The position numbers were made by a program, and so were the translations under genes. A DNA stretch of 47,686 nucleotides, taken from sequence record DRR723986_25809; one strand, given 5' to 3'. Shown one piece after another: positions 5,117-18,921 of this stretch (position 1 is its first letter; each line of letters opens with the position of its first letter). The notes under the pieces were generated by a model that saw only the letters and a list, made by a program, of their open reading frames with translations, ran no database searches and had not been told where the DNA came from.

Positions 5117-5536
5117 TCACTCTCCAAAGTACTCCACAAAATTCCTTGGAGTCTCGTAAAGAGTAAGTTTATGTAGTCCCCCGTGCGAAGTAATTTCTTT
5201 CACGGCTGGCTCAAGTATCTTCCAAAACTCCATGATAAGATTTTCACAACTCGCCAATTTGCCTTGCATAAAATCGACGTCCACATTTAGGTTCTTGTGA
5301 TCTACCTTCTCAATCACCAAATTTCTGATTATGGTACTCAATTTTTTTAGATCCACCACAAACCCCGTATCTGGATCTGGCAAGCCCTTCACCATCACGA
5401 TCAACTCAAAATTATGACCATGCCAGTTAACATTGGCGCAAGGCCCAAATACCTCCACATTTCTTTCATCTGACCACTTCGGATTCCAAAGTTTGTGGGC
5501 GGCATTGAAATGTTCTTTTCTACAAACGTAAATCAT
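5117..5536 (-). CDS. 6-pyruvoyl-tetrahydropterin synthase / 6-carboxytetrahydropterin synthase (QueD) family protein, COG0720
   Basis: HFNAAHKL, C-x5-HGHN (CANVNWHGHN), DHKNLN, SCENL, ETPRNF motifs. Confidence 0.9.
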   Translation of the reverse strand: MIYVCRKEHFNAAHKLWNPKWSDERNVEVFGPCANVNWHGHNFELIVMVKGLPDPDTGFVVDLKKLSTIIRNLVIEKVDHKNLNVDVDFMQGKLASCENLIMEFWKILEPAVKEITSHGGLHKLTLYETPRNFVEYFGE

Positions 5537-5651: not shown

Positions 5652-6350
5652 TTATAATTCGTTGAGTTTTTGAAAGAATATGGTCAAATGATCTTCTCTA
5701 CTTAGGTTTAGATCATTTTTCTTCACTATTTCCTTTCCAATATCCTGATCTTTTTCATTTAAAGCTTTGAGAATATTTCTTGTGTTATCCCGAACACTCT
5801 GGACGTTCTCCTCAGAATCTATTAAGTAAAAACTCTCTTCAAACACAAACATTCTACCAGCTGTCACAGCATAGCTGTTTTTAGGTGGTGTCACTAAGTC
5901 CGAATAAAATCTCCTTATCAACGTATAGTTTTTCCCCTCAGCAATCACATTCACTAGATCTTTTGGCCCAAGGTTAGGGACAAAGTCAAAGCCTTTTTTC
6001 ACCAACAAACTGGTTAGCATTCCAGTGTTATTATTTGTCAATTGAATAGAAGGCCTAGTAAGTATTGCATATTCCACATAATCTTTATTCAGATAAATTT
6101 TATTACCAGCTTCGTTGATAACTTCTAATTCATTGTCATGAATGTTAAACCTATATGAAACCTTTTCTTTAAGCCCTGCATTGGTAAAGCCTATATCAGC
6201 CGTTGACCAATCGTCGAAAAGGTAAGGAGAACCATCTATATCGGTGTAAGAATTTAATCGAGCGGGAGCTCCATTCATATTAATATTGGATATTTGTGCT
6301 ACTGCAAAATGGGAACAAAAAAGGGTTGCAACCAGTAGGATATTTTTCAT
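5652..6350 (-). CDS. Secreted hypothetical protein
   Basis: Sec signal peptide MKNILLVATLFCSHFAVA-Q, GSPYL..DW motif common in Bacteroidota secreted proteins; start overlaps the protease stop. Confidence 0.8.
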   Translation of the reverse strand: MKNILLVATLFCSHFAVAQISNINMNGAPARLNSYTDIDGSPYLFDDWSTADIGFTNAGLKEKVSYRFNIHDNELEVINEAGNKIYLNKDYVEYAILTRPSIQLTNNNTGMLTSLLVKKGFDFVPNLGPKDLVNVIAEGKNYTLIRRFYSDLVTPPKNSYAVTAGRMFVFEESFYLIDSEENVQSVRDNTRNILKALNEKDQDIGKEIVKKNDLNLSREDHLTIFFQKLNEL

Positions 6351-9300
6351 TAGTTTTTAATTACTTTTTTATTTAGTGTCAAATTATTTGTGTTAATCTT
6401 CAGGATATATAATCCCGATGGACCAGTCATTAAGAGTTCAAAATTCAATTCATCGTCAGATTTAATGGCACTTTGCGAAAGGTAGATTCGGCCTGTAAGA
6501 TCAATAAGCTGGACTTCAACATTACCTCTATAGTTATTAGAAATGTTTATACTCAATTTATCCGATGTAGGGATTGGCCCAATAAACACTCCAAACCGAC
6601 TTAATTCTGACTCATTATCAGGAATTGCAGAAATGACAGTTGGTTCAGAGATCCTATTACAATCATCGTCAAAGATTGCAACCTGATAACGGCCATCTCC
6701 CGAAGCTTGAATGGATCTATTTGTAGCTCCTTCTAGTTTAACTTCATTGAGATACCATTGATAAGAGGACCCGGACTGCTGAGAGGTAAGAACATTGCCA
6801 TTTGCAACAATATTCGGCTTAAGCAAATCATTTTCGACTACAGTTACTAATTGATCAAATTCTGTTGATCCAGAATCATTTGTAATAGTCAATGTAACCA
6901 AATAATCTCCAGGCTGCTCAAAAACGAATATAGGATTAGCATTAGTAGAAGAGCCTAGTCCTCCGAAATCCCATAAATATTCTGAAATTAACCCTTCACT
7001 AAGATTCTCAAATTCAGATGCAGCGCCTACACACGTGTAGTTACTTATAAAGTTGGCAAACAAAACATCCTCGCAATTTTGTGCTAGCCATCCATCCGAA
7101 TTTGAAAGTGAGGCATTGCTACCAAGATTAATAATTGAAGCTCCCTCTAGGTCTACATTAGATATATTGAGGTTCTCAAAGCAATATTTTCTGTATTCAT
7201 CGTGAACAATCGTTCCTTTATCTGTGGCTGTTATTTCAGCATTAGCAGTAGAAGTTGCATCAACTGTTATCGTATTCAACACAGAAATTTCGCCAGACTG
7301 ATTCAAGTCCAACTGAGAACCTGCACCAAGTTTCAAATCTTCCAACTCAAGGGAAGCTGCAGTTTGAATCATTTTACCATTCTGAATTTCTAAATTCTGG
7401 AAGCCGTCTGAAGAAACATTCAAAACACCCGAACTTATTACTAGGTTAGCGAAATCCCTTGAAGAGGTATTTTCAAAGAGACCGCTTTCCCCGCTAAACT
7501 CCAAATCAACTCCTTCTTTAAGAATGGAATTATTAGCGATCAAGACGCTTGTTTTAAATTCTATTTGCTCGAAATCCCCCGAAAGTTCCGAAGAGGAAGT
7601 CAACGAAAGGGAGTTTAAACTCAATCGCGGTATTGATACTGTAAGATTCGCATTTGAAATTGATACCTTATCTAGATTTTCAGCCTGCAACAACTGCCAA
7701 TTACCAGATTCGAAATTTAATTCAACATTTTCAAATAGTGTTTTACCTAACTCAACTAGCTGCTCATTTATAGTAGGGTTAATAAAAACAATTTTACCGT
7801 TTCTAATTTCGGTAAGTTGATTACTAACTCTAAAACCATTAGAAACCACGATATCATTTCCATTCAAGTTCATTGATACTGATTGGCTACCAAATAGGTT
7901 TACACTAAACGCATTGGCATCAACAGGGAAATTGACCACAAGGGGACTGGCAGAAGCGCCTTCAAAAACCACTCTTGTTCCTAAAGAAGGAATCTTATTA
8001 GCTGTAGAACCATTAGCAGTGGATGACCAGTTAGATGGATTATTCCAATCTCCTCCGGAATTACCTATCCAATACAATGTCTCAGAAGCCCCATCCGAGG
8101 TACCTGCTTTCATTACCATAGAGAAATCCTGAATTCCGTTTATCAATTCTCCTTTATGGGTAACAATTACTTTATAGCGTTGTGGCTTTGGGTTGGGAAT
8201 ATAAATTTGCTCTACATTATCTCTAAAATTGTCCTTATCTGTTTCTGCAATAGCAGAAAGTCTCACAGCAGGGTTAAGTGTGTAAGGAAAAAAGGTTTTG
8301 CCCTCTTCATCTATGATTCTTAAATCCAAATCATTTACCAACATCAATTTTTGAGGATTTAATGACGGCGAAGCTGGGTTCCCTGCAGGATCTGTCCAAG
8401 CAATCGTGATCCGAATTGGTTGAATCCCATCTGACACAAATTCATTTTCGAAAACAGCTCCCTGAGTAAGATTTTCTTCACGAATCACATCTGAACTTCC
8501 ATTCTCATTTAGTATAATTTCCGCAGCCCCTTTTGTATTTAGCAGCCCCCATCCATATACGTAATCTGGACCAGGGTTATTACCAGCCTCTTTCGTAGTA
8601 TTTATCATGAGGGCTTTTAAGGTAGATGCCCACATATATCTTCCTGCGTTTCGTTGAGCAAATAATTGCTGGAGCAACAGGAGTGAACCTGTAACATTTG
8701 GTGATGCCATTGATGTACCGCTGAGGGAAGCATAAGAATCTGTCGCACCGCCATCAGCTATAGCCGAACTAAATACACTTACCCCCATGCCCACTACATC
8801 TGGTTTTATTCTGCCGTCATCTACTGGTCCAACGCTAGAAAAACTACTTATTGCAACATCCTGAGGTCCTGTGTATTCATTAATATTACTTACCGCACCT
8901 ACCGTTATTACGTTTTTAGCAACCCCTTCTGGTCCAATTGTGTCATCGGGTCCATCAGGATCTCTTGTTCCATCACCAGAGTCAGATCTATCATTACCAG
9001 CAGCCCAAACAATCGTATAATAGGGCTTAGCAAAAGCCAATTCGTCTATACCTCTACTTTTAGAAGAATAAAAACCAAATCGGTAATCCTCATCAGGATC
9101 GACTGCTGCGTTTCCTGACCAAACCCAAGCATTACTTGCATTTCGATACCACCCCACCACTATTCCATAGGAATGATTAGAAACTAAATGTCCGTCGGTT
9201 TGAGTAATCGGATCATAGGCATTCAAATTCATTTTAGAGAGATCACTTTCCCAGTTAAAAGCCCAACCAGTACTTTCATTAGCCATGCCCTTTGCATTTG

Positions 9301-9832
9301 CATTGATTCCAGCTGCCATTATTGTACCCGCAACGTGTGTTGCATGGTTACTAATTACCTCGGTAGAACCATCAACCTGTGTAAGTCGATCCTGGAATTC
9401 AACATGGTTAGCTTTTGGTCGTGTCTGATCATATATCCCAACAGTCATCCCTTTTCCCGTAAGATTCAGTGCCAGACTCCCTCCTTGCTGAAGAGCATTG
9501 GTAGAAGTAGTGATTGCAGCCCGAGTGTTAAACGTAGTGTAATATACGGGCGCATTGCTTTCGTCAAAATAATTAAGCTCAGCTACTTGGCCATCTTGTA
9601 ATTTAAGTAGATAGGGAATTCCTAATTGATTAGCTTTTTGTTTTATAGCTTCTTTATTGAGATAAAAAGAAGGGAAATTCAAATTGAAATCCTTTGATAT
9701 AACATCCCTTTCCTCCAAAAGAGAAGGAGAATTGACAAACTGTTGGGCTTTCACTAACGCAATGCTTAAACCCAATAGTAAAACTATAAGTATTGATCTC
9801 ATCAATCTATTATCCATAAACCAGTTTATCAA
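6350..9832 (-). CDS. S8 (subtilisin-like) serine peptidase with PKD domain and T9SS type A C-terminal sorting domain; start probably 9817 or 9802
   Basis: Triad Asp (GIYDQ), His (HATHVAGT), Ser (GTSMASP); oxyanion AAGND; PKD WDFG...PGDYLVTLT; CTD GPIPT...DLTGR...SGLYILKI...KKVIK. Confidence 0.92.
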   Translation of the reverse strand: MINWFMDNRLMRSILIVLLLGLSIALVKAQQFVNSPSLLEERDVISKDFNLNFPSFYLNKEAIKQKANQLGIPYLLKLQDGQVAELNYFDESNAPVYYTTFNTRAAITTSTNALQQGGSLALNLTGKGMTVGIYDQTRPKANHVEFQDRLTQVDGSTEVISNHATHVAGTIMAAGINANAKGMANESTGWAFNWESDLSKMNLNAYDPITQTDGHLVSNHSYGIVVGWYRNASNAWVWSGNAAVDPDEDYRFGFYSSKSRGIDELAFAKPYYTIVWAAGNDRSDSGDGTRDPDGPDDTIGPEGVAKNVITVGAVSNINEYTGPQDVAISSFSSVGPVDDGRIKPDVVGMGVSVFSSAIADGGATDSYASLSGTSMASPNVTGSLLLLQQLFAQRNAGRYMWASTLKALMINTTKEAGNNPGPDYVYGWGLLNTKGAAEIILNENGSSDVIREENLTQGAVFENEFVSDGIQPIRITIAWTDPAGNPASPSLNPQKLMLVNDLDLRIIDEEGKTFFPYTLNPAVRLSAIAETDKDNFRDNVEQIYIPNPKPQRYKVIVTHKGELINGIQDFSMVMKAGTSDGASETLYWIGNSGGDWNNPSNWSSTANGSTANKIPSLGTRVVFEGASASPLVVNFPVDANAFSVNLFGSQSVSMNLNGNDIVVSNGFRVSNQLTEIRNGKIVFINPTINEQLVELGKTLFENVELNFESGNWQLLQAENLDKVSISNANLTVSIPRLSLNSLSLTSSSELSGDFEQIEFKTSVLIANNSILKEGVDLEFSGESGLFENTSSRDFANLVISSGVLNVSSDGFQNLEIQNGKMIQTAASLELEDLKLGAGSQLDLNQSGEISVLNTITVDATSTANAEITATDKGTIVHDEYRKYCFENLNISNVDLEGASIINLGSNASLSNSDGWLAQNCEDVLFANFISNYTCVGAASEFENLSEGLISEYLWDFGGLGSSTNANPIFVFEQPGDYLVTLTITNDSGSTEFDQLVTVVENDLLKPNIVANGNVLTSQQSGSSYQWYLNEVKLEGATNRSIQASGDGRYQVAIFDDDCNRISEPTVISAIPDNESELSRFGVFIGPIPTSDKLSINISNNYRGNVEVQLIDLTGRIYLSQSAIKSDDELNFELLMTGPSGLYILKINTNNLTLNKKVIKN

Positions 9833-9855
9833 CGTTTTAGAACTAATTAAAGTTT

Positions 9856-9884
9856 AAAAAAAAGGGGGCTAAAAAGCCCCCTTT
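9856..9884 (-). terminator. Intrinsic terminator after susC-susD-lipoprotein
   Basis: AAAGGGGGCT-TTT-TAGCCCCCTTT followed by a U-run on the minus strand. Confidence 0.85.
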
Positions 9885-9904
9885 ATTATGAATTAAAAGA
9901 GATT

Positions 9905-10753
9905 CTAGACTTTGGTAAGGACTACTGTACCACCATCTCCCCAAGTATTTGACCAAATAATGGTAATAGTACCATCCTCATTTACTACACCAGAGATAGT
10001 GAAAGGATCACCAAATCTATCTGCATTAGATGCAGAACCTGTTAGGACATCGCAGTTATCTCGGATAGATCCAGTTGGCTTTGAATCATTATAAAGACCA
10101 GGGTACATTCCAAAAGACATATCGTCCATATTGTACAAACCGGTACCTGCAACTCCAAACGACATCGTGCTAGCGGAAGCTATAACAAAATCTGTAGTTG
10201 TTTGATCTGCACCACCAGCTCCATCTCCGAGTTGGAGTTGCTCCCAGAAAACAGAGTAAGTACCAGCTAAATCTGAAGGACAGATAACACGAATAGCTAC
10301 AGTCAAAGAACCATAATTGGAAGAAACTTCTGCACCAGTAGCGCTAGTGATGTTCAAAATCAAATCAGGTGTCTCAGATGGATCAATATTCCCTGTTAAC
10401 ACGGTGACTGGTAAGTTAGAAACAAACTCACCAGAACCAATTGTTATAGATTTGGAATCCAATCTATAATGAACACCTTCAACTGCTGTTGAAGTAGGAT
10501 CTGCCTCTATATTAACTGTAATTGCAGCACTTCCTGAAGTAGAAACTCTGTTGATTTGAACATTCAACACATCTGTTTGCGAAGAATTCAATCTCACAAA
10601 GGATTGAGTCAATCCATTAGGAAGATTTGCAGCGTTGAACTCAACCTGATTTCCATCAAAGAAGGTATCAACACCCTGATCATCAAAACAAGCAGTGGTC
10701 GTCAGCGTAGCGACGAGCATTGCTAGAAATATATATATTTTATTGCTTTTCAT
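9905..10753 (-). CDS. Sus-locus surface lipoprotein (DUF4843/Calx-beta-like, SusE-positioned)
   Basis: Lipoprotein signal ending TTAC followed by acidic residues; STAVEGVHY Ig-like motif; directly after susD. Confidence 0.8.
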   Translation of the reverse strand: MKSNKIYIFLAMLVATLTTTACFDDQGVDTFFDGNQVEFNAANLPNGLTQSFVRLNSSQTDVLNVQINRVSTSGSAAITVNIEADPTSTAVEGVHYRLDSKSITIGSGEFVSNLPVTVLTGNIDPSETPDLILNITSATGAEVSSNYGSLTVAIRVICPSDLAGTYSVFWEQLQLGDGAGGADQTTTDFVIASASTMSFGVAGTGLYNMDDMSFGMYPGLYNDSKPTGSIRDNCDVLTGSASNADRFGDPFTISGVVNEDGTITIIWSNTWGDGGTVVLTKV

Positions 10754-10767
10754 TATTTTTTCCGGTT

Positions 10768-12198
10768 TTAGTTATAACCTGGGTTATCTACCAACAGCTC
10801 ATTTAATTGTACCTGATCCTGAGGAAGTGGGGCAAGAAGTCTATAATCCGAATAAGGAACTGGCTCATTGTCACCATGCTTAGTAATGGTAAGGCCATTT
10901 CTTTTTAGATCGAACCATCTATGACCTTCTACTGCAAATTCAAGTCTTCTTTCAGTCATAATCTGATTAAACAATGCATCTCCAGACAATTCGCCATCGA
11001 CTGCAGGCAATCCTCTGTTAGTTCTAAGAGCATTCAAATCTGATCGCGATCCAGCAGCATCACTAGTTCTAAATCTAGCCTCAGCTCTGATTAGGTAAAG
11101 CTCTGCAGCTCTAATAATCGGTAGATTTTCAAGAAAATCACCCTTAGTACCTAACCATTTGTTTGACCTGTAAACTGTTCCTGTTGCACCAGAACGAGTA
11201 GTCTCAGTCCAAGTATTTCGTCTTACGTCTCCTGTCTCATAGGCTGCAAGCAATTCGTTTGATGCAGTTACAATAAATTGCGCACTACTGAAAACATTAG
11301 CTGTAAGCGTACACATGGAGTTATTCACACCATCTACTGTTGACCAATCCACAGATCTGATTTCCACTTCAAATAGAGATTCAGGATTAGGATAAGTAGA
11401 AAAGCTTGACACATAATTAGCAGGTGTTGCTAGCCCAGTGCCATCATTCCCAAGGCCAAACGTAGCCATCGCTTGTGTTGCCATTGAGGCAGCTTCAGAA
11501 AATTTAGAATCATACAAATAAACTCTCGCAAGAAGCGCTTCAGCAGCTCCTTTGGTCACTCTATAAATACCTGCTGTTCCTTTTGCAGCTGATGGAAGTA
11601 AACCAATTGCAGTACTCAAGTCAGACTCAATCTGATCATAAACTTGTCTATTGGTAGATCTAGCTCTAAAATCTGCATCAGAAAAGCCTAAGGTAGGCTC
11701 AGTTCTGATAATCACAGAATTATTCCAACCATCTACCTCTTTACCTGGCTCATAGCCATAAACTTTAGCCAAATCGAAATAATATAAAGCTCTCAAGAAA
11801 AGAGCTTCACCTTTAATTCTATTCTTTCTGGTAGCGTCCCCTTCAACATCATCAATACCTGCAAGGATAATATTTGTCTCATTAATTGAACTATAATTAC
11901 CCCAAAGCGACATATGCGCTCTGTCTGCATTTACTTCCTGACCAATGTATCGACCTGTATTTGCGATAATTCTTAAATTATCAGCCATTATTTCAGGTGC
12001 AATCATTAACGTCTGTCCGTAAGCGCCAAACGCTCTTGCACCACCGTAAGATGCCGCCAATAGTGATTCATAACCATCCACATCTGAAAGTGCAGACTCT
12101 GGTGTTAAACTTTGTCTTGGTTCGGTTTCCAATAAATCTGAACAAGATGCCAGAGATAGTACAGATCCAAGCGCAATGATTTTTATATAATTTTTCAT
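10768..12198 (-). CDS. RagB/SusD family nutrient-uptake lipoprotein
   Basis: Lipobox LASC, GEALFLRALYYF, KGAAEALLARVYL, IRAAELYLIRAEA, ERRLEFAVEGHRWFDLKR, terminal NPGY. Confidence 0.95.
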   Translation of the reverse strand: MKNYIKIIALGSVLSLASCSDLLETEPRQSLTPESALSDVDGYESLLAASYGGARAFGAYGQTLMIAPEIMADNLRIIANTGRYIGQEVNADRAHMSLWGNYSSINETNIILAGIDDVEGDATRKNRIKGEALFLRALYYFDLAKVYGYEPGKEVDGWNNSVIIRTEPTLGFSDADFRARSTNRQVYDQIESDLSTAIGLLPSAAKGTAGIYRVTKGAAEALLARVYLYDSKFSEAASMATQAMATFGLGNDGTGLATPANYVSSFSTYPNPESLFEVEIRSVDWSTVDGVNNSMCTLTANVFSSAQFIVTASNELLAAYETGDVRRNTWTETTRSGATGTVYRSNKWLGTKGDFLENLPIIRAAELYLIRAEARFRTSDAAGSRSDLNALRTNRGLPAVDGELSGDALFNQIMTERRLEFAVEGHRWFDLKRNGLTITKHGDNEPVPYSDYRLLAPLPQDQVQLNELLVDNPGYN

Positions 12199-12210
12199 TC
12201 CTATTTCTAA

Positions 12211-15189
12211 TTAGAAGTTAAGATTGATACCAGCAGAAATCTGACGTGCATTTGGATATGCTCCGTAAGTACTTCCGATAGAGTTCGCCTCTGGATCAAT
12301 TCCGTTATACTTAGTAAAAGTCGCCAAATTCAACCCTTGAACGAATATAGAAGCGCTTGCCATACCTATTTTACTTGCAGTTGCAGCACCTAAAGTATAG
12401 TTTAATGTCACTTGCTTCAATCTTATATATCCTCCATCACTTATTAATCGAGTAGAGAATGTGTTGATATTTGAAGTCCCTGGTTCTTGACCGCCTTCAT
12501 AAGGTCTTCCTACAGTTGTGATATCGCCTGGTTGTGTCCAATAGTCTAACTGATCTACTGTCATATTACCCGTGCCAGATCCCCAGTTGGAAAGATTATA
12601 CAAATCTGAGTTGGTGGCTAAATTCCCGAACTGGTATTGGAAGAACACTTCAAGTGATACTGGTCCATAAGTGAAAGTATTAGAAAGTCCTCCGTAGCTA
12701 GAAGGCAAAACGCTTCCTCTGTAGTCCAAGGTACTTTGACCCGTCACATAAGTAAAATTCCCAGTTCCAGTCCCATCATCATACATCGCTCTACCATTTG
12801 CAGGGTTAACTCCCAAATATTTATTTGTATAGAAAAACGATATAGGTTTTCCAACAATCAAATCGTTACCAATACGATCTAGACCATCATAAAGTGATAT
12901 TAATTCATTCTCAAGGAAAGTGATATTGAAACCAGTGCTCCACTGGAATTTCCCTGCTACAACGTTCACTGTTTGCACATCAAGATCAATACCTTGGTTT
13001 CTTACTTCTCCTGAGTTTCTAGTGATTGATCCGAAACCTGAATCAGTAGGAAGCGGGGTATTAAATAGAAGTGCTTGAGAATTCTTTCTCCAAAACTCAA
13101 CAGTTGTGATAATTCTTCCATTGAACAAAGTTGCATCTAAACCGAGGTTGATAGATTCTGCTTCTTCCCAAGTCAATAGGTCATTACCCAATTGAGTCAA
13201 TGTCAATCCTCCTTGACCTAAATATTGTCCCGAAGACCCTACTAAAGATCTTGAAGCAAAATTGGCAATATCAGAGTTACCAGTTACCCCGTAGGATGCT
13301 CTTACTCTTAAGTTGTCCAACCAAGTAACATCCTGAAGGAATGCTTCAGAAGAAAGTCTCCATCCTGCAGAAACTGCATAGAAAGTACCCCATCTGTTTT
13401 GCTCACCAAATCTAGAGTGACCATCTCTTCTCAATGTAACGTCTGCTGTGTATCGGTCATCATAATCATATTTTGCCTGACCGAAGAAACCAGCTCTCTT
13501 GTATTCAGTGTATGAACTACCTACTGAGAATGGAGTAGCAGCATTATTTAAATAAATCAATGTAGGATTTGGGAATCCTCTACCAGTTGCAGTTTGCAAA
13601 TCAGACTGAGACCCTTTGTACTCAAAACCTAAGATACCGGACACAGTATGAACGTCGTTAAATTTCTTATTGAAATTAAAATTGTGGTTGGTATTTAAGT
13701 TTGTATTTCTTCTAGCTGTAAAAGTTGAAGCTCCTCCATAAGAAGAAAACACCGGAATCGTAGATGGTCTGTTATTGATATCCGCATTGTCGGAGAAATC
13801 AAGTCCAAAGTAAGAAGTCCAGCTTAACCATGGAGCAAATTGATAGTTCAACTGCAGGTTAGATACTGTCTGTACTGTTTTACCACTTCTCAATTCTTCG
13901 TATACACCTTGTACAATATTGTATCCAAACAGGTGATTTGATGGATAAGGGGCAAAAGTCCCATCCTCATTATAAATTGGAACATTAGGACGAGCTGAAA
14001 AACCAGCTACGAATGGACCATTTACAAAATTTCCTCTATCGATTGATCCATTTGTGTTTTGGAAAGCCAAAGAGAGATTAGCTGATACAGTTAGATTTTT
14101 AGTAGGTCTGTGAGTAACATTCAATCTACCCGTAGCTCTATCATAATCCGACATTTGAATTTGACCTTCCTGCTTAGTATATGACCCTGAAAGGAAGAAC
14201 GTAGTTTTCTCATCTCCTCCAGAGACAGAAATATCATAAACACTCAGTCTACCCTCTCTATAAAGGGCATCTAGCCAATCATAAGACTCAAGATTAGGAT
14301 CTTCTGGATTACCATAAGTCGCATCTGATCCAGAAGTAGCCAAACCACGGTTTTGGTAAGCTACTCTTTTGATTCCAGCCAATTGGGAGGCGTCCATCAC
14401 ATCATAAAGATTGATTGGCTGAACAATTCCTTCTTGAACAGAAACTTTAACTTGTGATTTACCTTTCTTACCTCTTTTAGTATTGATCAAAACAACACCA
14501 TTTGCAGCCTGAGCTCCATAAATTGCAGCAGCGGCTGCGTCTTTAAGAACTTCAATCGACTCGATGTCATTAGGGTTGATTGATGCTAGTGCGTTCTGGG
14601 AACCTTGGCCGGAAAGACCACCATTGTTTACCTGGACACCATCCACTATGTAAAGTGGATCATTACCGGCGTTGATAGAACCAACACCTCGGATTCTAAC
14701 ATTCAAAGTACCACCTGGCTGACCAGAAGTAGAAGTCACTTGAACACCAGCAACTCGACCTTGCATAGCACGGTCAAACGATTGAACTGGAAGATTTTCG
14801 AAGATTTCACCTTTTACAGATGAAATAGCCCCCGTAATCTCTCTTTTTGATTGATCTCCATATGATGTTACCACTACTTCGCTCAGGCTCTGAAAATCAG
14901 GCTGCAAAGTTACATCGATAACAGATTTTTGACCAATGTTGATTTCTTGAGTGGTTGTTCCAATGAAACTAATCACCAAAACTGTTCCACCATCGGGAAT
15001 GTTTAACGAATACTTGCCATCAAGATCTGTGGCAGTACCAACAGTAGTACCTTTAACGAGGACGGTTGCACCTGGGATTGGTTGACCATCTTCTGCTGAA
15101 GTTACTATTCCGGTTACTCTACGCCCCTGTGCAAATGCCACAGCACCTACCAGGAATAGCGAAAGCCCTAGGAGTAAAATTTTCTTCAT
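12211..15189 (-). CDS. SusC/RagA family TonB-dependent outer membrane transporter
   Basis: N-terminal carboxypeptidase-regulatory-like domain, plug motifs IRGVGS, PLYIVDG, NPNDIESIEVLKDAAAAAIYG, LTWEE, C-terminal YPNAR...GINLNF. Confidence 0.96.
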   Translation of the reverse strand: MKKILLLGLSLFLVGAVAFAQGRRVTGIVTSAEDGQPIPGATVLVKGTTVGTATDLDGKYSLNIPDGGTVLVISFIGTTTQEINIGQKSVIDVTLQPDFQSLSEVVVTSYGDQSKREITGAISSVKGEIFENLPVQSFDRAMQGRVAGVQVTSTSGQPGGTLNVRIRGVGSINAGNDPLYIVDGVQVNNGGLSGQGSQNALASINPNDIESIEVLKDAAAAAIYGAQAANGVVLINTKRGKKGKSQVKVSVQEGIVQPINLYDVMDASQLAGIKRVAYQNRGLATSGSDATYGNPEDPNLESYDWLDALYREGRLSVYDISVSGGDEKTTFFLSGSYTKQEGQIQMSDYDRATGRLNVTHRPTKNLTVSANLSLAFQNTNGSIDRGNFVNGPFVAGFSARPNVPIYNEDGTFAPYPSNHLFGYNIVQGVYEELRSGKTVQTVSNLQLNYQFAPWLSWTSYFGLDFSDNADINNRPSTIPVFSSYGGASTFTARRNTNLNTNHNFNFNKKFNDVHTVSGILGFEYKGSQSDLQTATGRGFPNPTLIYLNNAATPFSVGSSYTEYKRAGFFGQAKYDYDDRYTADVTLRRDGHSRFGEQNRWGTFYAVSAGWRLSSEAFLQDVTWLDNLRVRASYGVTGNSDIANFASRSLVGSSGQYLGQGGLTLTQLGNDLLTWEEAESINLGLDATLFNGRIITTVEFWRKNSQALLFNTPLPTDSGFGSITRNSGEVRNQGIDLDVQTVNVVAGKFQWSTGFNITFLENELISLYDGLDRIGNDLIVGKPISFFYTNKYLGVNPANGRAMYDDGTGTGNFTYVTGQSTLDYRGSVLPSSYGGLSNTFTYGPVSLEVFFQYQFGNLATNSDLYNLSNWGSGTGNMTVDQLDYWTQPGDITTVGRPYEGGQEPGTSNINTFSTRLISDGGYIRLKQVTLNYTLGAATASKIGMASASIFVQGLNLATFTKYNGIDPEANSIGSTYGAYPNARQISAGINLNF

Positions 15190-15668: not shown

Positions 15669-17591
15669 TTATAATACCTTAATGGTGATTCTACGATTTA
15701 AAGCTTTGTTTTCAGGACTATCGTTTTTGACCATTGGATCCTTATCCCCTTTCCCCTCTACTATGACTCTTCCATGATGAAAACCTTGACTAGTAAGGTA
15801 TTCCTGAACACTTTTTGCGCGCTGTAAACTAAGTGTTTGATTATAATTTGCGCTACCCACATTGTCCGTATGTCCAATTATCAAAATATTAACATTTGGA
15901 TTTTCAGATAAAAATTTTACTAGCCTCTTCAGTGATGATATTGATTCCGGTTTTAAGCTATAATCATCAAATTCAAAAAATACATTTTCAAAAACGAACT
16001 CCTCCCCAGCTGCTACTGGAACAAGCTCTACTTTTAAATCTTTGACATTTTTAATATTGTCCCGCTCTACATTATAAATTTTTGGTAAATAACCTTTTTT
16101 CTCAACATAAAGGCCTGATATAGCTTTTTCAGGATAAATCATAGTAAATGCACCGGTCTTCCCGTCTGAATTGAATCGATAAAGCGTGCTGTCATTGACC
16201 AAAGAAACTAGCGATAAAGTAGCATCAATTGGTTCACCAGTTTCCGAATTAAATACTTTGCCTTCTGTCACGGTAAGATTTTCACCCAGTGAAATCTCCT
16301 CAGGAAATTTGAATCTATATAACAGAGACCTGTCATGTTCATTTTCTGAAGAAGTTAATTCCGTAAAGTACGCATAGTCCTTTTGAGCAGTAATAAATAA
16401 AGCAACCTGATCTAATTGATCGTTTATTGGCCATCCTAAATTTTCAGGCTTGGTAAACTCTCCATCCACTACTTTAGACAGCTGGATATCCATTCCACCA
16501 AAACCAGGATGACCATTAGATGAGAAAAAAAGAATCTCGTTATTAAAGAACATGAAAGGGGAAATTTCATCTTTTGGTGTATTTACCACATCCCCAAGAT
16601 TTTTAGCTTCGGACCAGCTTGCGTCATTTTGCATCACGCTATACCAAATATCATTTCCTCCAAATCCCCCCTTCCTATTTGATGAGAAAAACAAAATCCT
16701 ACCATCTGCAGATAAGGATGGTTGAGAGTCCCACGATCTCGAATTCACATTTTTCCCCATATTTCTTGGTCTTTGCCACATCCCATTGATCTTATATGCG
16801 ATATATAGGTCACAGCTTCCTTCTGAATCTGGAGCATCACATGAAGTGTAGATCAGGATATTCCCGTCTGCAGTGACCGAGCAGGTCCCCTCGTTATATG
16901 GTGAATTAATCGTTTGTGCTATACTCTGAGGTTTGGACCAATCTCCATCTGGAGAAACAAATGCCATAAAAATATCCTCTTTATCATTATTCCCTGTTCC
17001 GTCCCGTTTCGTGAAAAGTATCTGTTCACCATCCGCTGTCAATACAGGAAAATACTGTAGTCGAAACTCATTGAGAGGTTCCGGCAATTTCTCCTTTTCG
17101 ATTTGCCGAAAGTTCTCCAACTGATCAGCAAGAAACTCCATTTGGCTTTTCATTTCCAGATAATTAGGCAAACGGCGAAATGATGCGTCAAATAATGGGT
17201 CAGTGGCTGCAAATTCCTGATAAGCCTCCTTGAATCTACCTTGCTTCAAGTATACATGGGTCAGAACCCATCCCAAATCTGCCTTATGCTGAGTTGTGGC
17301 ATTCTTACCGGATAGCCGTGATTTTCCAGCAACAACGGTCTTCTCCGCATTATCTAATTCCCCCACCGTAATTTGAAGCTGGGCCAATTTTACATAGGCT
17401 TCTAAAAATGAAGCTTCTCTATTGATCGCATCCTGATATTTTTCAATAGCCGAATCGTATTGCCGAGAAAGGGTAAACTCTTCTGCCTCCCGATACAGCT
17501 TAATAGCCTTCCCATCAATGATCGAATAGCTTTGCGCATTTGCGAAAGATATTGTCAAAAAAAGAAGAATTCCGGCTAAAATTGGGCGCAT
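15669..17591 (-). CDS. OmpA-family protein with TPR, PD40 beta-propeller and C-terminal peptidoglycan-binding domain (PorE-like architecture)
   Basis: Signal peptide from ATG 17591 (MRPILAGILLF...ANA-Q); PD40 repeats (QPSLSADG, FFSSNR.GGFGG.DI); OmpA motifs GHTDNVG, LSLQRA, NRRI. Confidence 0.9.
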   Translation of the reverse strand: MRPILAGILLFLTISFANAQSYSIIDGKAIKLYREAEEFTLSRQYDSAIEKYQDAINREASFLEAYVKLAQLQITVGELDNAEKTVVAGKSRLSGKNATTQHKADLGWVLTHVYLKQGRFKEAYQEFAATDPLFDASFRRLPNYLEMKSQMEFLADQLENFRQIEKEKLPEPLNEFRLQYFPVLTADGEQILFTKRDGTGNNDKEDIFMAFVSPDGDWSKPQSIAQTINSPYNEGTCSVTADGNILIYTSCDAPDSEGSCDLYIAYKINGMWQRPRNMGKNVNSRSWDSQPSLSADGRILFFSSNRKGGFGGNDIWYSVMQNDASWSEAKNLGDVVNTPKDEISPFMFFNNEILFFSSNGHPGFGGMDIQLSKVVDGEFTKPENLGWPINDQLDQVALFITAQKDYAYFTELTSSENEHDRSLLYRFKFPEEISLGENLTVTEGKVFNSETGEPIDATLSLVSLVNDSTLYRFNSDGKTGAFTMIYPEKAISGLYVEKKGYLPKIYNVERDNIKNVKDLKVELVPVAAGEEFVFENVFFEFDDYSLKPESISSLKRLVKFLSENPNVNILIIGHTDNVGSANYNQTLSLQRAKSVQEYLTSQGFHHGRVIVEGKGDKDPMVKNDSPENKALNRRITIKVL

Positions 17592-17595
17592 GGAC

Positions 17596-18228
17596 TTAGG
17601 GTATGTCCATAAATTTATGAGTTTGAAGCGAAATTTTCCATTTTGGATGATTTTTTGCAAAATCTATAATCACAGGAGTAAATTTTTCAGCCTTACTCCA
17701 CTCTGGTTGTAAGCGCAATTCACAGCTGGAATTCACCTGCACAGCATGCTCTTCCGCAAAGGCAAAATCACTTTGATGAAATACTACAACCTTTAATTCA
17801 TCTGCTTCTGCGTAGATCGAAGGATGTGGCTTTTTGAACTTTTTGGGTGAAAAACAAACCCAATCAAAATCACCCGAAAAAGGATGTGCTCCGGAAGTCT
17901 CAATATTAGTAGTAAATCCCTTTTCCTTCAAAAGTGATGTCAAAGGTCCAAGATCATACAGTAGAGGCTCACCTCCTGTTATGACTACCAACCTCCCTGG
18001 GTAAGCCAAGGCATCCTCCACAATCCTTTCTATCGAAAGAACCGGCCACTTACCAGAATCCCATGACTCTTTTACATCACACCAAACACATCCTACATCA
18101 CAGCCTCCAAGCCGGATAAAATAAGCAGGATGCCCGGTAAATCTACCTTCCCCTTGTATGGTATAAAATGCCTCCATTAAAGGAAGCTCCAATCCTTTCG
18201 CCACTAACTCCTTTGTGTTCATATTCAT
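17596..18228 (-). CDS. queE: 7-carboxy-7-deazaguanine synthase (radical SAM); start 18228 or 18222
   Basis: FYTIQGEG, CDVGCVWCD (CxxxCxxC), VITGGEP, IETSG, SPK, SLQTHK. The ORF-track start at 18279 falls inside the promoter. Confidence 0.94.
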   Translation of the reverse strand: MNMNTKELVAKGLELPLMEAFYTIQGEGRFTGHPAYFIRLGGCDVGCVWCDVKESWDSGKWPVLSIERIVEDALAYPGRLVVITGGEPLLYDLGPLTSLLKEKGFTTNIETSGAHPFSGDFDWVCFSPKKFKKPHPSIYAEADELKVVVFHQSDFAFAEEHAVQVNSSCELRLQPEWSKAEKFTPVIIDFAKNHPKWKISLQTHKFMDIP

Positions 18229-18230
18229 CT

Positions 18231-18262
18231 GAATTTTTGGTAAAGCGGGCAATTGAACCGCT
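18231..18262 (-). promoter_or_regulatory. Candidate preQ1 class I riboswitch aptamer
   Basis: Minus strand AGCGG-UUCAAUUGC-CCGCU-UUACCAAAAAUUC: 5-bp P1, loop starting UUC and ending C, A-rich tail, loop AAUU complementary to tail AAUU; lies in the queE 5' UTR. Confidence 0.65.
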
Positions 18263-18276
18263 GGTGAATTATGCCG

Positions 18277-18284
18277 CAAAGGTA
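18277..18284 (-). promoter_or_regulatory. Bacteroidota primary-sigma -7 promoter element for queE
   Basis: TACCTTTG matches TAnnTTTG. Confidence 0.65.
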
Positions 18285-18356
18285 AGGTTTATGATTGAAA
18301 AACTCGAAGATTACAAAATTGTAATATTCCAAACTCGATTTATCAGTCCTTTAATT

Positions 18357-18797
18357 CTAGAAGCTTTTCCGCATCACTATTCTATAATCATCCTCTGACC
18401 CTTTTTTGATCACCTCCACAATCTTAAAACCTCTTCTCATCCCAAAATTGATCATGGCAGGAAACCTATTCCGTGTTTTGAAAAAGATCCGTGTAAATCC
18501 ATTTTCCTTAGCCCATAGCTCTTGCTTGTCAGCCAAAGCACGTGCAACACCTGCTTTCCTGAATTGAGGTATCACTCCTCCCATCCAGGAATAAAACATT
18601 TCTGGCTTGTTACTTTCATAACCAACTTTAAATCCAGCCAATTGGCCTTCTACTTCAGCTACCAAGACCAAATGCATCTTGAGCTTGAGTCGCTCTTCAT
18701 AAAAGCCACTCCCAATCTCCCCTGGAAACTCCGGAATCAGCCTATGGATATAATAAACATCTTCAATACTTCCTTTCCGAATAATCACATTTCCCAT
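18357..18797 (-). CDS. GNAT family N-acetyltransferase
   Basis: LAGFKVGY, YSWMGGV.PQFRKAGVA acetyl-CoA motif, KTRNRF..MI; ATG at 18797 preferred over 18818. Confidence 0.88.
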   Translation of the reverse strand: MGNVIIRKGSIEDVYYIHRLIPEFPGEIGSGFYEERLKLKMHLVLVAEVEGQLAGFKVGYESNKPEMFYSWMGGVIPQFRKAGVARALADKQELWAKENGFTRIFFKTRNRFPAMINFGMRRGFKIVEVIKKGSEDDYRIVMRKSF

Positions 18798-18921
18798 ATC
18801 ACACTTTTCCGTAAACAAATAAATCTATTAAAAACCTTTCCGTTATGTAAAAATGATTCGTTAAATAAACAGCAAGTCTTTATGAATTACGAATTTGAAC
18901 CACAAAGCCCATCAATTTTTC

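Follow-up and report, generated by a model that had tools for sequence, protein, structure and literature searches.

Three subtypes of class I prequeuosine-1 (preQ1) riboswitches have been published, and the one closest to the RNA element described here is type III, known from the yhhQ leaders of Escherichia coli and Shigella. As far as it is portrayed in PMC10622847 and PMC11625349, type III has UU after the 5' strand of its first helix (P1), which holds three conserved G-C pairs, and AC at the specificity base. Its loop is short, nine bases separating G5 from C15 in crystal numbering; P1 is followed by a variable linker, and four to five conserved A's stand immediately before a second helix (P2) of three pairs. 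According to PMC10622847, the three pairs of the E. coli RNA (U11-A28, C10-G29 and C9-G30) bury the AAGG Shine-Dalgarno (SD) sequence, and a U7C mutation (wild-type numbering) abolished binding. Here we describe a 31-base element in the leader of a queE-family gene on sequence record DRR723986_25809, a stretch of 47,686 nt that we call the window and whose coordinates are used throughout; both the element and queE lie on its minus strand. By analogy with the published RNAs, we think it probable, with clear reservations, that positions 18232-18262 form the aptamer of a small class I preQ1-type riboswitch with a plan nearest to that of type III, which would sense preQ1 or preQ0 and act as a translational OFF switch of queE. 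A preliminary description of the window had placed the known preQ1-I riboswitches mainly in Bacillota and some Pseudomonadota. This view was too narrow, as type I is listed from Bacteroidota among other phyla in PMC11625349.

The 31-base element is a strictly conserved, single-copy part of the queE leader and did not arise by chance. In a comparison built around the nearest genome (G001), 31 queE loci from different genera (the window and 30 others) were read, and 17 of them carry the same 31-32 bases ahead of the gene, between flanks that are unalignable. R1, a covariance model built from these 17 queE-leader copies, gave 55.6 bits to the window's own copy, and the runner-up within the window reached 16.6 bits. 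Searched with R1, the 151 family genomes gave a bimodal set of scores, with 42 matches of 34-59 bits, one per genome and from 36 genera, and the next best match at 28.7 bits; one of the 42 lies in an unpublished genome (G112) and was left out of the loci that were read. All 44 strong copies read (the window's, 41 from the search and two from congeners) sit directly before a queE homologue, and none of the 18 listed R1 matches of 28.7 bits or less does so. On metagenome contigs, a corrected sequence pattern picked out 79 stretches, 32 of them before queE and two cut by the contig end. The other 45 were set aside as chance or coding matches, coding having been checked by eye for one recurring group only. 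A scan of viral contigs with the pattern gave one stretch, which has neither a P1-forming flank nor an ATG behind it and was read as chance. With a pattern one base longer, genome contigs yielded a variant with a one-base insertion in two Anditalea records, plus scattered chance matches.

Among the 65 distinct copies, the motif ends 0 (13 copies), 1 (5), 2 (11), 3 (33) or 4 (3) bases before the first ATG. This spacer is tight and does not vary in multiples of three, and the stretch is therefore not coding; it also leaves no room for a terminator, in agreement with the preliminary description, which had seen none after the aptamer. Flanks, promoter distance (14-27 bases) and reading frame are not kept among the copies. 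The element is thus positioned relative to the ATG, not to the promoter.

Its distribution is much narrower than that of the gene. QueE is present in all 61 genomes of the window's family (one per genus) and in 129 of 151 genomes of the order. In the sample of the order, R1 matches strongly only in the window's own genus (4/4) and did not find the motif in 142 genomes of 21 other families, and 40 queE leaders from 19 sister families, searched with unfiltered R1, gave nothing above 12.5 bits. In a sample of the phylum, the model scores G001 only. In a tree of QueE proteins, 14 of the 17 motif carriers fall in one clade (100/100 support) and three are scattered. The motif is lineage-restricted and mostly vertically inherited, and it may have a single origin. 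Conservation and covariation across Cytophagales, which the preliminary description had named as a check, were borne out in part: the motif is kept and shows a few compensatory changes, but it is confined to part of one family.

Under the pseudoknot proposed for the motif, 97.7% of the cells in an alignment of 78 copies (65 distinct; 44 from genomes and 34 from metagenome contigs) hold standard pairs, compared with at most 52% in controls with slid partners. Three pairs are changed on both sides, a number reached by none of 500 shuffles (mean 0.4). The closing G-C pair of P1 is present in 65/65 distinct copies, and one genome carries GCAG/CUGC in place of GCGG/CCGC, a compensating change from G-C to A-U; at the fifth P1 pair (A1-U19), changes from A-U to G-C and from A-U to U-A are seen. 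The three pairs of P2 are intact in 100% of the cells of the distinct copies and are never broken. In one genome (locus L097), loop AAC is matched by tail GUU, which replaces U-A with C-G, and in nine distinct copies loop GAU puts G.U in place of A-U. In the window, loop AAUU (18254-18251) is complementary to tail AAUU (18235-18232), and the preliminary description had proposed a loop-tail pseudoknot of four pairs on this basis. Three of these pairs are general, while the fourth (U18251-A18235) needs a U that is found in only 28 of the 65 distinct copies. Within the third loop (L3), 64/65 distinct copies have the C, all four A's are invariant (65/65 each), and the linker (alignment columns 24-27) is the most variable part inside the motif. 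When the motif is folded alone without pseudoknots, the P1 hairpin forms at -5.3 to -5.9 kcal/mol (z of about -1.9) and the tail is single-stranded; the folding energy of the 61-nt leader is unremarkable (z = 0.04). The structure is well backed by conservation and complementarity.

The motif has the traits of class I preQ1 riboswitches, namely a G-C-closed P1, a specificity C, a U at the start of the loop, and an A-rich tail with P2. It also has their queuosine-gene context, in 44/44 strong copies and in 32/34 metagenome copies, the other two being those cut by a contig end. The preliminary description had recognized a class I preQ1 architecture in the window's queE leader, and an element conserved at the RNA level is indeed what was found there. 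With type III, it shares the plan of an H-type pseudoknot, a 5-bp P1 whose top is rich in G-C, a loop of nine bases separating G5 from its partner, and UU after the 5' strand of P1 (63/65 here). The specificity C, present in 65/65 distinct copies, is preceded by A in 57 of them, as in type III; G takes this place in eight, the window's and seven others, all from its close relatives. Each of these precedes a QueE gene at least 83% identical to the window's, and every copy before such a QueE has the G. Further likenesses, as far as type III is described, are the run of four to five conserved A's that immediately precedes a 3-bp P2 and the linker of variable sequence, to which translational control without a terminator may be added if control here is as we propose. 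By our own mapping of the two numberings, the site of the U7C mutation would be U6 of crystal numbering and the invariant U6 of the motif.

The differences from type III are as clear. P2 is AAU/AUU here (U-A, A-U, A-U), whereas that of type III is CCU/AGG; the loop is UUCAAUNAC and not pyrimidine-rich, the tail is AAAAAUU, and AAGG occurs in none of the 65 distinct copies of the motif. The pseudoknot ends 0-4 bases from the AUG and not a spacer away, the linker has a fixed length, the gene is queE and not yhhQ, and the host belongs to Bacteroidota and not to Pseudomonadota. In addition, the window's lineage has a G at position 13, and the Rfam model RF00522 does not score the motif. Types I and II, represented by RF00522 and the B. 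subtilis queC leader, share with it the fold class, the specificity C, the A-rich tail and the association with queuosine genes. However, type I has UC before the 3' strand of P1, where the motif has AC or GC, and the motif's loop is shorter than those of both types, as the papers, in what they state of it, say of type III.

How such an element might act is suggested by the way Bacteroidia start translation. Initiation in these bacteria is reported to depend on low structure and on adenines at -3, -6, -12 and -13 (so PMC6847099), and their ribosomes are reported not to use SD sequences (PMC6847099; PMC7797042, PMC13000457). In the leader, the adenines of the initiation type are the motif's own A's, the common spacers placing the invariant ones at about -3 to -10. 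The A-rich stretch used for initiation is thus the very stretch that would be folded, as the preliminary description had supposed. In the ligand-free state, only P1 would form, leaving the tail CAAAAAUU and the start codon single-stranded, so that the SD-blind ribosome could load. A 7-deazaguanine ligand, most likely preQ1 and possibly preQ0, would sit over the G18258-C18248 pair and pair with C18249; the four A's would dock in the groove of P1, and AUU (18234-18232) and AAU (18254-18252) would join as P2. This would produce a compact H-type pseudoknot that ends 0-4 bases from the AUG and buries the upstream adenines that serve as initiation signal, and translation of queE would fall.

Several results weigh against this interpretation. 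The first concern the catalogued models. RF00522 (PreQ1; 45 positions, gathering score 39 bits) has no match at its gathering score in the whole window, and none at E<=10 in window positions 18150-18400 (251 bases) or around a consensus-like copy (L005 2100-2300, 201 bases); recognition of the leader by this model, to which the preliminary description had looked, failed. In five carrier genomes, scoring was limited to 150 first-look candidates per genome out of about 860-2400, and the queE leaders are not among the scored matches of at least about 13.4 bits. The window's copy has G instead of the usual A or U before the specificity C, and two congeners of the window have UCG or UGG for UUC. 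Invariance is partly a matter of construction, because 34 of the 78 alignment rows were picked by a pattern fixing many positions and the rest by a consensus-trained model. Covariation is thin, since four of the eight pairs never vary and each helix owes its covariation to one or two sequences; 12 of the 65 distinct copies also fail to form the fifth P1 pair. There are also few independent events among the carriers, most of which belong to one QueE clade. Finally, P2 consists of only three A-U pairs; it would be unstable alone, which fits a strongly ligand-dependent fold.

The pathway raises a further difficulty. Canonical QueC (TIGR00364) is over the cut-off in none of the 151 family genomes, where four weak matches reach 58-70 bits, and QueF was not found in any of the five carrier genomes. 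The known steps from the QueE product, 7-carboxy-7-deazaguanine, to preQ1 therefore appear to be missing order-wide, and a de novo route is not evident from the genomes. Either there are analogues beyond the known enzymes, or the cells take up preQ1 from outside and use QueE for a different purpose. This complicates a simple feedback logic and makes us less sure what the ligand is, though no less sure that the element exists. In the sample of the order, QueC is over the cut-off in 7 of 151 genomes, and the controls, including Bacteroides thetaiotaomicron, were positive. Tgt is encoded in each of the five carrier genomes, along with two paralogues of QueA and two PTPS/QueD genes, and the window itself holds a PTPS/QueD-family gene at 5117-5536 (minus strand). 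YhhQ, of the preQ0/preQ1 importer family, is encoded in G001, the one genome searched for it. The place of queE in 7-deazaguanine synthesis and the presence of Tgt, QueA and YhhQ count in favour of the riboswitch interpretation.

RF00522 is over its cut-off in none of 151 genomes sampled across the phylum, with a positive B. subtilis control, and its best match in that sample (25.1 bits) was dismissed as noise, lying antisense inside a long membrane-protein open reading frame that we read as FeoB-like. The models for preQ1-II (RF01054) and preQ1-III (RF02680) have no match at E<=10 in the window segment or the L005 copy, and no Rfam family matches the motif. Applied to the alignment, RNAalifold retrieves only a four-pair P1, with a covariation term of -0.03.

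Another account of the same fold is that the pseudoknot is tuned to preQ0, 7-carboxy-7-deazaguanine or another guanine-like base. It would suit a lineage with a non-canonical pathway after QueE, in which QueC and QueF were not found though QueD, QueE, Tgt and QueA are present. The failure of RF00522 points the same way, as does a loop that differs at positions 9, 10 and 13 from all three published subtypes as these are described. Moreover, PMC11625349 reports known riboswitch variants that have altered bases in the pocket and bind other ligands. However, in known structures the guanine-like face and the minor-groove edge are recognized by C14, U6, the A's and G5, every one of which is conserved here, the changes sit in P2 and not in the pocket, and the YhhQ importer family is present. 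We consider a ligand of this kind rather unlikely.

Alternatively, the leader might be constitutive or bound by a protein: a stabilizing 5' hairpin followed by an A-rich initiation enhancer, or a hairpin recognized by a sequence-specific RNA-binding protein. A near-invariant stem and loop would suit protein recognition as well as they suit a riboswitch, GGUUCRAUY..CC resembles the T-arm of tRNA (the loose pattern also matched tRNA-like and repeat sequences), and covariation is thin. Yet a stabilizer hairpin has no need of an invariant nine-base loop complementary to the tail, and the compensation from U-A to C-G in P2, together with the nine G.U changes, argues for pairing between loop and tail. 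A match to the preQ1-I pocket residues upstream of a queuosine-pathway gene would, moreover, have to be a coincidence. Such a leader is, in our opinion, unlikely. A DNA operator, in which the inverted repeat AGCGG-N9-CCGCT would be bound by a dimeric transcription factor repressing queE, has in its favour that this 5-bp repeat is perfect and lies 10 bases downstream of the predicted start, but it is very improbable. The repeat keeps no constant distance from the -7 element (14-27 bases), and several genomes have no such element in the 110 bases inspected. What is conserved is asymmetric (loop and A-tail), conservation is lowest at the outer position of the repeat, and the element is fixed to the ATG instead.

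A class I preQ1-type aptamer ahead of queE remains the reading we prefer. It is tempting to go one step further and see in the motif a fourth, Bacteroidota-specific class I preQ1 subtype, in which P2 has been rewritten from CCU/AGG to AAU/AUU, so that the bound knot would swallow the start-proximal adenines of SD-blind ribosomes, and whose locus would hint either at a different ligand or at QueC/QueF analogues yet to be discovered. We put this forward tentatively, as a proposal that may well prove wrong.

The features of the locus are collected in Table 1; the preliminary description had given stem, loop, tail, promoter and ATG correctly on the minus strand.

Table 1. Features of the queE leader and adjoining genes in the window (DRR723986_25809)
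Feature	Position	Strand	Basis or remark
Predicted -7 promoter element TACCTTTG	18277-18284	-	Fits the Bacteroidetes consensus TAHHTTTG
P1 5' strand AGCGG (positions 1-5)	18258-18262	-	GCGG in 64/65 distinct copies
Nine-base loop UUCAAUUGC	18249-18257	-	Sequence
Loop start UUC (U6, U7, C8)	18255-18257	-	U6 in 65/65, U7 in 63/65, C8 in 63/65 distinct copies
P2 5' strand AAU (positions 9-11)	18252-18254	-	Always pairs with tail AUU in the 65 distinct copies
U18251	18251	-	Fourth loop-tail pair (U18251-A18235) in the window copy
G13 and putative specificity cytosine C14	18249-18250	-	Directly 5' of P1 3' strand
P1 3' strand CCGCU (positions 15-19)	18244-18248	-	Pairs with AGCGG
Tail UUACCAAAAAUU	18232-18243	-	Holds L3 and P2 3' strand
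L3: linker UUAC, then C and four A's	18235-18243	-	Alignment columns
P2 3' strand AUU	18232-18234	-	3 bases before first ATG
CAG, then first ATG; second ATG	18228-18226; 18222-18220	-	Sequence
queE-family radical SAM gene, 210 aa (ATG 18228) or 208 aa (ATG 18222)	17596-18228	-	NCBIfam, Pfam, homologues
TPR/PD40/OmpA (PorE-like) gene	15669-17591	-	Starts 4 bases after the queE stop

The Bacteroidetes promoter consensus is given as TAHHTTTG with its G at -5 (PMC6847099, as far as it treats promoters), and the element claimed upstream in the preliminary description is a good match to it. In the window, 14 bases separate the -7 element from P1. Counting from the G of the element, transcription is predicted to start at about A18272, 10 bases before P1, and the leader is then about 44 bases long, with the whole motif inside it. 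TAnnTTTG precedes P1 by 14-27 bases in at least nine other queE loci. Several genomes have the motif directly behind the end of the upstream gene, and no -7 element occurs in the 110 bases inspected. A stretch resembling AUUCAC/UUUAC is loosely kept just before P1, in the 15 bases 5' of it, in many copies (18263-18270 in the window). In the nested minimum-free-energy fold of the window's leader, this pre-P1 stretch can pair with UGAAU over the start codons, a partner that is not conserved elsewhere. Two in-frame ATGs lie six bases apart (18220-18228, minus strand). The second is preceded by A at all four of the positions -3, -6, -12 and -13, whereas before the first, A stands only at -6 and -13 and C takes its place at -3 and -12.

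The best NCBIfam match of the gene product is TIGR04322 (QueE; 3.7e-40, 137.7 bits), which lies under the cut-off of 200, and Pfam finds Radical_SAM only. A queuine lyase was considered as another possible identity of this product; every named homologue is labelled QueE or radical SAM protein. Close homologues called QueE occur in Algoriphagus, Echinicola and Anditalea and mostly have 208 aa, being annotated from the second ATG. The preliminary description was also right about the OmpA/PD40 gene, whose ATG, at 17591, follows queE by 4 bp. Of the 31 loci, 25 keep queE and the TPR/PD40/OmpA gene in this order, among them 8 of the 14 that lack the motif, and the PorE-like gene is possibly co-transcribed with queE. 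Upstream of the window's queE, which has its own promoter, lies a GNAT acetyltransferase gene (18357-18818, minus strand). Elsewhere in the order, many genomes have queE immediately behind a gene whose product has an end resembling ...PGGVGPMT...LL.NT... (translated by eye) and which we take to be FolD-like. It was seen in L002, L003, L006, L010, L016, L018, L022, L024, L025, L027 and L030, and the same gene end occurs in loci of other families, including L108, L113, L115, L119, L120, L127, L130, L131, L134 and L140. Further downstream in the window, positions 6350-15189 (minus strand) hold a SusC/SusD pair and a subtilisin-like protease sorted by the type IX secretion system, with ClpX and LpxB further on, all of them ordinary Bacteroidota genes.

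Two observations concern look-alikes of the motif. The closing G and the first seven loop bases (G-UUCAAUU; 18249-18258, minus strand) resemble a T-arm (GGTTCRANNCC). Identity with a tRNA or its T-arm was rejected: the loop has nine bases and not seven, and ARAGORN finds no tRNA or tmRNA in 17900-18700. The longer pattern also matched about 25 copies of a repeat of about 60 bases in Microcoleus, Tychonema and Kamptonema, which is unrelated to queE. It was seen in L146, L148-L150, L152-L154, L156, L159-L161, L166, L168, L170, L172, L175, L177-L181, L184, L186 and L187, and several of the genomes have two stretches of it.

We found nothing in print on this motif in the literature on preQ1 in Bacteroidota; the lists of McCown 2014 may or may not include these leaders. 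A whole lineage-specific variant is missed by the catalogued PreQ1 model, and the presence of QueE without QueC or QueF in most of the order (QueF having been checked in five genomes) is a puzzle of the pathway in its own right. Translational riboswitch platforms have almost all been described as hiding an SD sequence. If our interpretation is correct, the queE leader would be a natural translational riboswitch platform that works independently of such a sequence. A switch of 31 bases abutting the AUG would then offer a simple and mutable object for studying start-site selection in this phylum and the ways in which it can be blocked, and might also serve as a compact regulatory part for Bacteroidota.

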